From the NCBI GenBank assembly GCA_000004695.1, contig CM000151.3, forward strand, positions 6,432,001 through 6,496,000: a DNA stretch of 64,000 bases. Direction: 5' to 3'. Within the stretch, counting starts at the first letter, position 1. Each line of letters starts with the position of its first letter. Below, in pieces: positions 50,148 to 50,420 of this stretch. The notes under the pieces were generated by a model, which was not told the DNA's origin, did not search any database, and worked only from the letters and a program-made list of their open reading frames with translations. The DNA is from Dictyostelium discoideum (Eukaryota). A program made the position numbers and the translations under genes.

Positions 50148-50228
50148 GGAAAAACTGTTGATAAAGGCGAGATTCGAACTCGCGAAGCCGAAGCATAAGA
50201 ACTTGAGTCTTACCCATTTGACCACTCT
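50148..50228 (-). tRNA. tRNA-Leu (anticodon CAA), class II, 81 nt, followed by a T5 terminator.
   Basis: Read on the minus strand: acceptor GGTAAAG/CTTTATC (7 bp including one G-U). D-arm CCA-GAGTGGTCAAA-TGG. Anticodon arm TAAGA-CTCAAGT-TCTTA (loop C-U-CAA-G-U). Variable arm containing GC-UUCG-GC. T-arm GCGAG-TTCGAAT-CTCGC. Discriminator A. Terminator TTTTT at 50135-50147. Confidence 0.8.
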
Positions 50229-50420
50229 GGTACTTTACCTTTTGAAAATAATTGAGAATTACGGTTGATATTGACCACTGTGATACTTTACCTTTTGAAA
50301 CCATGAATTACGGTGAGTCTTACCCATTTGACAACTCTGATACTCTACCTTTTGAAAACCATTGGGAATTACGGTTGATTTTGACCACTTTGGTACTTTA
50401 CCTTTTGAAAACCTTGGCTA
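50190..50420. repeat. Tandem array of about 4 units, roughly 60 bp each. Each unit is a copy of the tRNA-Leu 5' half (about 35 nt) plus about 25 nt of upstream flank (ttttgaaaa..attacgg).
   Basis: 'gagtcttacccatttgaccactctggtactttacc ttttgaaaataattgagaattacgg' is followed by 'ttgatattgaccactgtgatactttacc ttttgaaaccatgaattacgg', then 'tgagtcttacccatttgacaactctgatactctacc ttttgaaaaccattgggaattacgg', then 'ttgattttgaccactttggtactttacc ttttgaaaacc'. Confidence 0.7.

Follow-up and report, generated by a model that had tools for sequence, protein, structure and literature searches.

The window, by which we mean the whole stretch of 64,000 nucleotides of AT-rich Dictyostelium discoideum DNA that was analyzed, contains an intact tRNA-Leu(CAA) gene of 81 nt on the minus strand at 50159..50239. 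This gene is called by ARAGORN and is recognized by the Rfam tRNA model with a score of 54.4 bits (E 4.7e-10), and its internal B box, AGTTCGAATC, is found at 50180..50171 on the same strand. Two other features flank it: a TRE3-type retrotransposon on its 3' side and a short tandem array of truncated copies of the tRNA gene itself on its 5' side. Between the tRNA gene and the retrotransposon, 33 bp 3' of the tRNA end, an external B-box-like motif, GGTTCGATTC, is located at 50116..50125 on the minus strand, and the same arrangement is also seen downstream of tRNA-Ser, at 41118-41127. The tRNA-Ser(TGA) of the window (41009-41086, plus strand) is degenerate in comparison with its 82-nt orthologs in five other genomes, having deletions in the D-loop and the anticodon-loop (CTTGAAA to CTGAA) and a compensated change in the acceptor stem; it is still called by ARAGORN and is probably a pseudogene in this strain.

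The neighboring TRE3 retrotransposon

The TRE3-type non-LTR retrotransposon extends over 43938..50079 on the minus strand, with its boundaries set by comparison with isolates that do not have the element. Its 5' end faces the 3' end of the tRNA gene at a distance of 79 bp, in agreement with the sequence-only reading that preceded this analysis, which had placed the 5' end of a TRE-type retrotransposon on this side. The assignment to TRE3 is based on two open reading frames, a reverse transcriptase in ORF2, a poly(A) tail, a target-site duplication (TSD) and the same-strand position 3' of a tRNA gene. ORF1 encodes 417 amino acids (49864..48611) and ORF2 encodes 1234 amino acids (48611..44907) with an RVT_1 match at E 1e-33, both on the minus strand and thus on the same strand as the tRNA gene. 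The poly(A) tail is found at about 43961..43938 on that strand, while the TSD, ACAAAAGTT, is 9 bp in length and occupies 50088..50080 and 43937..43929. ORF1 shares 98% identity with its D. discoideum homologs and related ORF1 proteins are found at three additional TRE loci; look-ups of the exact proteins encoded by the window ORF1 (417 and 359 amino acids) and ORF2 returned no match. Table 1 of PMC5006619 places TRE3-A at 14-228 bp and TRE3-B at 34-188 bp downstream of tRNA genes, and the 79 bp found here is inside both ranges.

Several other properties of this element were observed. A tandem duplication of ~852 bp at its 3' end (43932-44247 versus 44784-45090) comprises the C-terminus of ORF2 and the 3' UTR and contains open reading frames at 44064-44748 on the minus strand. 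Consequently, the TRE3 of the window is about 6.1 kb long, compared with a published consensus of about 5.2-5.3 kb. Just inside the 5' end, a perfect 36-nt direct repeat, GTATCTTGTATCCTCTTGATCGCGGTACGGTTTTTT, with 38-bp spacing is found in the 5' UTR at 49999-50072. An Rfam IRES match in the 5' UTR was sub-threshold and is regarded as spurious. The independent D. discoideum assembly GCA_054883475.1 (L001) has another TRE3 arrangement, in which its positions 1-7600, corresponding to 43932-50087 of the window, contain an internally deleted TRE3 and, after it, another copy; these closely related lab strains may truly differ in structure here, or the two assemblies may differ.

Truncated tRNA copies upstream of the tRNA-Leu(CAA) gene

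Ahead of the intact gene, its 5' end is repeated in three truncated copies, which are arranged head to tail on the minus strand and start at 50402 (copy A), 50349 (copy B) and 50292 (copy C). The sequence-only reading, which had described about three extra degenerate copies in tandem at this position, was correct in this respect. When nt 1-22 of the gene, GGTAAAGTACCAGAGTGGTCAA, were used as a query at no more than 3 mismatches, four matches were found in the 64-kb window, all on the minus strand: the gene itself (50239) and the starts at 50402, 50349 and 50292, with 1, 3 and 2 mismatches, respectively. No other site in the window was matched by this query, which also found no match in 100 dinucleotide-preserving shuffles. 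The tandem organization is also recovered by Tandem Repeats Finder (TRF), with a period of 53 bp in 3.7 copies (score 211) and a super-period of 110 bp with 90% matches (score 351), and by a repeat search in which 50204-50300 and 50314-50410 are 91% identical. The spacings of the four starts are 53, 57 and 53 bp rather than the period of about 60 bp given earlier.

The three copies differ in the extent of the tRNA sequence that they retain. All begin with GGTA(A/G)AGTA when read on the minus strand, but only the middle copy B reaches the anticodon, with 33 of 36 positions identical to tRNA nt 1-36. Copies A and C contain tRNA nt 1-22, followed by AATCAA and TATCAA, respectively, which may be a remnant of the anticodon. 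The earlier description of the copies as 5' halves that extend to about nt 35 is hence appropriate for copy B and not for copies A and C. In each partial copy, the tRNA-derived part is followed by a flank of the form CCGTAATTC...TTT(T)CAAAA, which also precedes the intact gene and has the general form CCGTAATTC...TTTTCAAAA; this flank had been given as ~25 bp per copy, and it is indeed repeated, with a length that varies from 21 to 25 bp. In the direct reading, a TTTT run is found ahead of each tRNA-like start.

Two types of units can be recognized. Copy C (50240..50292) is of the short type and 53 bp long, with nt 1-22 at 50292..50271, TATCAA and a 25-bp flank, CCGTAATTCTCAATTATTTTCAAAA, which is itself the flank from -25 to -1 of the intact gene. 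Copy B (50293..50349) is of the long type and 57 bp long, with nt 1-36 at 50349..50314, ending within the anticodon, and a 21-bp flank, CCGTAATTCATGGTTTCAAAA. Copy A (50350..50402), again of the short type and 53 bp long, contains nt 1-22 at 50402..50381, AATCAA and a 25-bp flank, CCGTAATTCCCAATGGTTTTCAAAA. In the window, A and C are 89% identical to each other, and in the alignment both correspond to the long form minus 8 nt (TGGGTAAG). The outer edge of the array is, on direct reading, marked by an outermost flank copy, ACCCATATAGCCAAGGTTTTCAAAA, at 50403..50427 on the minus strand, of which 16 of 25 positions are identical to the internal flanks. When the sequence upstream of unit A was aligned with the units as a possible further decayed unit, comparison with shuffles gave 5/1000 in the window and 0/1000 in the isolate L005 and failed in the isolate L006, a signal that is weak or inconsistent across haplotypes.

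Copy number and TRE3 in orthologous loci

To compare the locus among strains and species, the orthologous interval was obtained from five more genomes (L005-L009) via homologs of the neighboring H-lectin gene, which is found at 52404-53465 of the window. The comparison sample comprises four haplotypes of the D. discoideum clade. In L001, the H-lectin product is exactly the same as that of the window, 16 kb of the locus match the window at 99.8% identity, and the array is identical base for base, with three extra units (short, long and short; 53/57/53 bp) and with TRE3 present. L005 (D. discoideum, GCA_054859355.1) has one short extra unit of 53 bp and L006 (D. discoideum, GCA_054859385.1) has four short extra units of 52/53/53/53 bp, in which TRF finds a period of 53 bp in 4.7 copies with 86% matches; TRE3 is absent from both. 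No extra unit and no TRE3 are found in L007, which is from D. cf. discoideum, a cryptic sister lineage, or in L009 from D. citrinum, while in L008 from D. dimigraforme tRNA-Leu is missing at the corresponding position. Although the AT-rich and repetitive nature of this DNA could invite errors, an assembly or sequencing artefact is next to inconceivable, because the array is identical in two assemblies, including an independent one, and because homologous arrays with other copy numbers exist in two further independent long-read assemblies.

Found in D. discoideum isolates and absent from L007 and L009, the array must have originated inside D. discoideum sensu stricto, and the differing numbers of units show its copy number to be unstable. 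Since L005 and L006 have arrays but no TRE3, the array predates the insertion of TRE3 and does not depend on it. This finding bears directly on the proposal that the copies originated from retrotransposon activity, either as scars of repeated abortive target-primed reverse transcription, the form raised in the sequence-only reading, as over-long TSDs or as products of reverse transcriptase template switching onto a pre-tRNA, all by way of tRNA targeting by TRE3, TRE5 or DGLT-A. Such an origin would be in line with the TRE3 at the tRNA gene of the window, with the upstream region of tRNA genes being a known integration window (about 50 bp for TRE5 and 13-33 bp for DGLT-A; PMC5006619) and with the 53-bp period being near the 44-48 bp at which TRE5-A integrates (PMC5391098). 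However, it is largely refuted by the presence of arrays, including a larger one, in isolates without TRE3. In addition, the units abut each other directly, with no retro-element sequence, poly(A) or per-unit TSD, the genuine TSD of TRE3 is just 9 bp in length, no upstream LTR-like TG...CA element with a TSD was found, and the units are not found in or beside other sampled TRE copies. Moreover, the flank of 21-25 bp in the units is longer than what a pre-tRNA 5' leader usually covers, a comparison that relies on the general length of such leaders and not on that of this gene. We therefore regard a retrotransposon origin, including the repeated abortive insertion suggested previously, as extremely improbable.

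Truncation junction and homogenization of the units

The truncation and the junction GGTCAA(A/T)A(T/C)CAACC are common to six of the seven short units, which come from three isolates, while the junction of the remaining one, a decayed distal unit of 52 bp in L006, reads GGTCAAAAAGAACC (AAGAACC). The common junction in six of seven short units indicates that one truncated founder was amplified, rather than that several truncations occurred independently. The long unit B has the CCGTAATTC junction in common with the short units and is found in the window lineage only, where it may be either a surviving ancestral unit or a unit regenerated from the gene. The ATCAA of the short units could likewise be either a remnant of the anticodon or part of the original flank.

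In some eukaryotes, such as Entamoeba (PMC2652664) and Arabidopsis (PMC2886086), complete tRNA genes occur in tandem arrays, and the copies might accordingly be viewed as an eroded array of once-complete tandem tRNA-Leu genes whose 3' halves were lost independently. Independent deletions, however, would not be expected to leave one truncation junction and one length of 53 bp in six of seven short units from three isolates, and no trace of a 3' half or of a B box is found in any unit or strain, so that this origin seems very unlikely.

Within a strain, the units are similar to their neighbors. The three units of L006 that are nearest to the gene, one of which abuts it, end with CATAG and the two distal flank copies with CACAG, while all units of the window and L005 end with CAAAA. 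The three neighboring proximal units of L006 are 89-91% identical to each other, and its most distal unit is the most decayed, with 69-77% identity; for distal copies in general, the range is 65-77%. Within-strain similarity, strain-specific variants and a decayed edge together are what slippage or unequal exchange accompanied by conversion normally leaves behind. With head-to-tail units in the range of 10-100 bp, copy numbers that vary between strains and a single founder unit as indicated by the common junction, the array has the properties of a minisatellite, or variable number tandem repeat (VNTR). Replication slippage, a DNA-level tandem duplication that the sequence-only reading had offered as one of several possibilities, is supported by the 1, 3 and 4 copies in the isolates, by 0 copies in two outgroups and by the homogenization within strains.

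RNA polymerase III signals in the truncated copies

In the window, the +1 G is retained in all copies, as is the permissive A-box pattern T8...A14...G18 (motif of PMC5391098), and the copies could be suspected of acting in cis as decoy or auxiliary RNA polymerase III (Pol III) promoters, as phasing sites for TFIIIB/TFIIIC, as sources of tRNA-5'-leader small RNAs or as a buffer against upstream integration of retrotransposons. Besides the retained promoter elements, the persistence of the array in three diverged D. discoideum lineages and the termination of copies in the anticodon, as in 5' tRNA halves, would be compatible with such roles. That most copies retain the +1 G and the permissive A-box could be a sign of weak constraint and not of a recent origin or of conversion.

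Other evidence argues against function. No B box was found within the array (50240-50427), and the copies, which stop at nt 22 or 36, do not form a full cloverleaf with internal A and B boxes; without a B box, they should not recruit TFIIIC on their own. The nearest B box, that of the gene, is at least ~96 bp from the A-box-like motif of any copy, compared with the 30-60 bp between the A box and the B box that are needed for efficient transcription (PMC5391098). ARAGORN and Rfam (E<=1) call the real tRNA alone and do not score the partial copies as tRNA. Folding of the array as RNA gives no signal beyond that of shuffles (z -0.66), and the TTTT run before each tRNA-like start could terminate Pol III read-in. 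The copy number, which ranges from 0 to 4, is not conserved and the distal copies decay. Finally, the 81-nt tRNA-Leu(CAA) is identical in L005, L006 and L007, while the flanks differ by 10-16%, so that the same tRNA gene exists without any array in D. cf. discoideum. On the basis of the missing B box, the A-to-B distance, the lack of a tRNA score and of a fold and the array-free identical tRNA of L007, the copies are considered inert. A function as a cis-element is thus quite unlikely, and the roles as a small-RNA source or an A-box decoy that had been suggested for the copies look unlikely as judged from their sequences.

In D. citrinum, the body of tRNA-Leu(CAA) (L009 8379-8459) is identical to that of the window, but the acceptor stem is GACACGG/CCGTGTC in comparison with GGTAAAG/CTTTATC in the window, with three pairs altered on both sides and one changed from G·U to A-U. 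This difference suggests either replacement or conversion by a paralog or rapid, compensated evolution.

Specificity of the array to the tRNA-Leu(CAA) locus

Nine other tRNA loci in ~250 kb, with orthologs counted separately, were inspected and contain neither 5' nor 3' partial copies. These loci are Ser-TGA in six genomes, Ser-AGA and two of Phe-GAA, and several of them adjoin TRE3 copies. In searches of the three units by blastn-short against the window and nine genomic loci that include several TRE3 copies (~250 kb of sequence from the D. discoideum group), the tRNA-Leu locus alone was matched. Since the units are absent from all sampled TRE copies, they are not a TRE module, whether an A-, B- or C-module, and their periodicity persists on alignment; the possibility that the repeated unit belongs to the retrotransposon family had been named beforehand as one of two observations that would overturn the sequence-only reading. 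The link implied there between the array and TRE-targeted tRNA loci is not supported. From these comparisons, the array is a feature of the tRNA-Leu(CAA) locus and not of TRE association, and its proximity to TRE3 is coincidental. With about 10 others sampled among roughly 400 tRNA loci, a genome-wide tendency to such arrays may still exist. A metagenome scan with the 5' half of tRNA-Leu(CAA) gave 0 matches, and a tRNA 5'-fragment array in Dictyostelium was not found described in a literature search.

Surroundings of the array

Directly upstream of the array, an inverted repeat extends over 50435..50592, with 22-nt arms (50435-50456 and 50571-50592) that are 86% complementary and a 114-bp spacer, and surrounds an AATTGA/ATTGTA hexamer microsatellite. 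Its counterpart in L006 (7991-8111) has 52-nt arms that are 87% complementary and a 17-nt spacer, and that in L005 (8939-9124) has 40-nt arms; no equivalent was found in L007 or L009. The inverted repeat is therefore present in all three array-bearing haplotypes and absent from both array-less ones, a comparison of three related haplotypes with two. Candidates for its identity are a foldback or MITE-like element, a remnant of an H3R/DGLT-A LTR and a local inverted duplication. A DGLT-A solo LTR (H3R) would be recognized by a length of ~265 bp, TG...CA ends, a short TSD, a position 13-33 bp upstream of a tRNA gene and repetition in the genome. The region 50435-50592 contains a HindIII site and its edge lies 32 bp upstream of unit A, a position that would suit such an LTR; no TG...CA ends with a TSD were found, nor was a second copy in the sampled loci. 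The blast search of this upstream region was confined to its informative part, as an unrestricted run was dominated by low-complexity poly(A/T) matches.

Farther upstream, a Rab-family GTPase pseudogene with an in-frame TGA and a C-terminal frameshift is found at ~50730-51450 on the minus strand. The Rab-like gene is intact in D. citrinum, where it encodes 201 amino acids, and mostly deleted in L005 and L006; an L001 gene model at 7862-9050 splices around the Rab defects and extends into the array of tRNA fragments. Between the array and the Rab pseudogene, at 50687-50725 of the window, lies a poly(T) tract of ~38-44 nt, which is 6 nt shorter in L001. With its Rab-like pseudogene, hexamer microsatellites and palindrome, the stretch from the H-lectin gene to the tRNA gene appears to be decaying DNA.

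The hairpin-prone palindrome and the Pol III complex could plausibly promote fork stalling and template switching at this locus. A stronger version of this idea is that the array and the palindrome together are the footprint left where replication forks repeatedly stalled and switched templates at a Pol III complex in action, or that the A-box copies influence the placement of TFIIIB or the targeting of retrotransposons. We consider this version unlikely. [quoted passage not shown]

A proposed origin of the array

We consider it likely that the array is a locus-specific, copy-number-variable minisatellite of a truncated, promoter-proximal segment of the tRNA gene and that it is most likely non-functional. 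We propose the following history. Once the D. discoideum lineage had separated from D. cf. discoideum and D. citrinum, the region from about -25 to about +36/37 of tRNA-Leu(CAA) may have been copied in a small tandem duplication at the DNA level. The breakpoint of the duplication would have been in the anticodon, with a junction of ...TCA(A)|CCGNAATTC and a microhomology of at most 1-2 nt. An internal deletion of 8-9 nt (TGGGTAAG plus C) may then have converted the long unit of ~62 bp into the short unit of 53 bp. Subsequent replication slippage or unequal sister-chromatid exchange would have expanded and contracted the array and gene conversion would have homogenized it, resulting in 1, 3 and 4 extra units. 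We infer this mechanism from the pattern of the units, and the order of the events and the lack of function are to be read in the same conditional sense. The single long unit of the window might be an ancestral survivor or might have been re-created from the gene, either by a 110-bp duplication or by conversion ending in the TCA(A) that is common to the anticodon and the short-unit junction. TRE3 would have arrived afterwards, through ordinary target-primed reverse transcription and solely in the AX4/AX2-like lineage, with no relation to the array.

Significance and comparison with known systems

As found, the array matters little, being a gene-fragment minisatellite, here well documented, in a decaying intergenic interval. 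It is nevertheless a length-polymorphic marker that separates D. discoideum lineages, and A-box fragments of this tRNA-like type ahead of a tRNA gene are a potential source of confusion when tRNA-fragment reads or retrotransposon integration sites are mapped. The natural alleles with 0, 1, 3 and 4 upstream A-box copies before an identical tRNA gene are also usable for probing Pol III initiation and the targeting of TRE5-A and DGLT-A.

Among known systems, the array resembles Dictyostelium TRE TSDs and modules (PMC5006619) in its neighborhood, with TRE3 at the expected position and a short TSD. Its units, however, are not TRE sequence, are not flanked by an element, are far longer than the 9-bp TSD and are on the opposite side of the tRNA gene from TRE3. 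A resemblance also exists to the tRNA fragments associated with prokaryotic integrative elements, which are reported (PMC9897764) as partial, non-functional copies beside an intact tRNA gene that is the target of a mobile element. According to the abstract of that paper and to general knowledge, those fragments are typically single, separated from the gene by the element and formed by site-specific recombination, whereas the 5' fragments described here directly abut each other in tandem, are not interrupted by any element and are also present in element-free strains.

The tRNA gene arrays of Entamoeba (PMC2652664) are similar in that they are tRNA-associated tandem repeats of an amoebozoan and polymorphic in length between strains. 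Their units, however, hold complete tRNA genes, and their variable short tandem repeats (STRs) are intergenic and not derived from tRNA, while the Dictyostelium locus has one complete gene and a unit that is a truncated tRNA copy. The closest likeness is to minisatellites (VNTRs), with which the array shares head-to-tail units of tens of bp, copy numbers of 0, 1, 3 and 4, homogenization within the array and edge units that are the most diverged. It differs from the usual minisatellite in that its unit is not anonymous DNA but the 5' part of an adjacent functional tRNA gene, including the +1 G, the A-box-like motif, the D-arm and, in one unit, the sequence up to the anticodon, together with the proximal flank. 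The array thus adds one more case to a known kind of sequence, the minisatellite derived from partial gene duplication.
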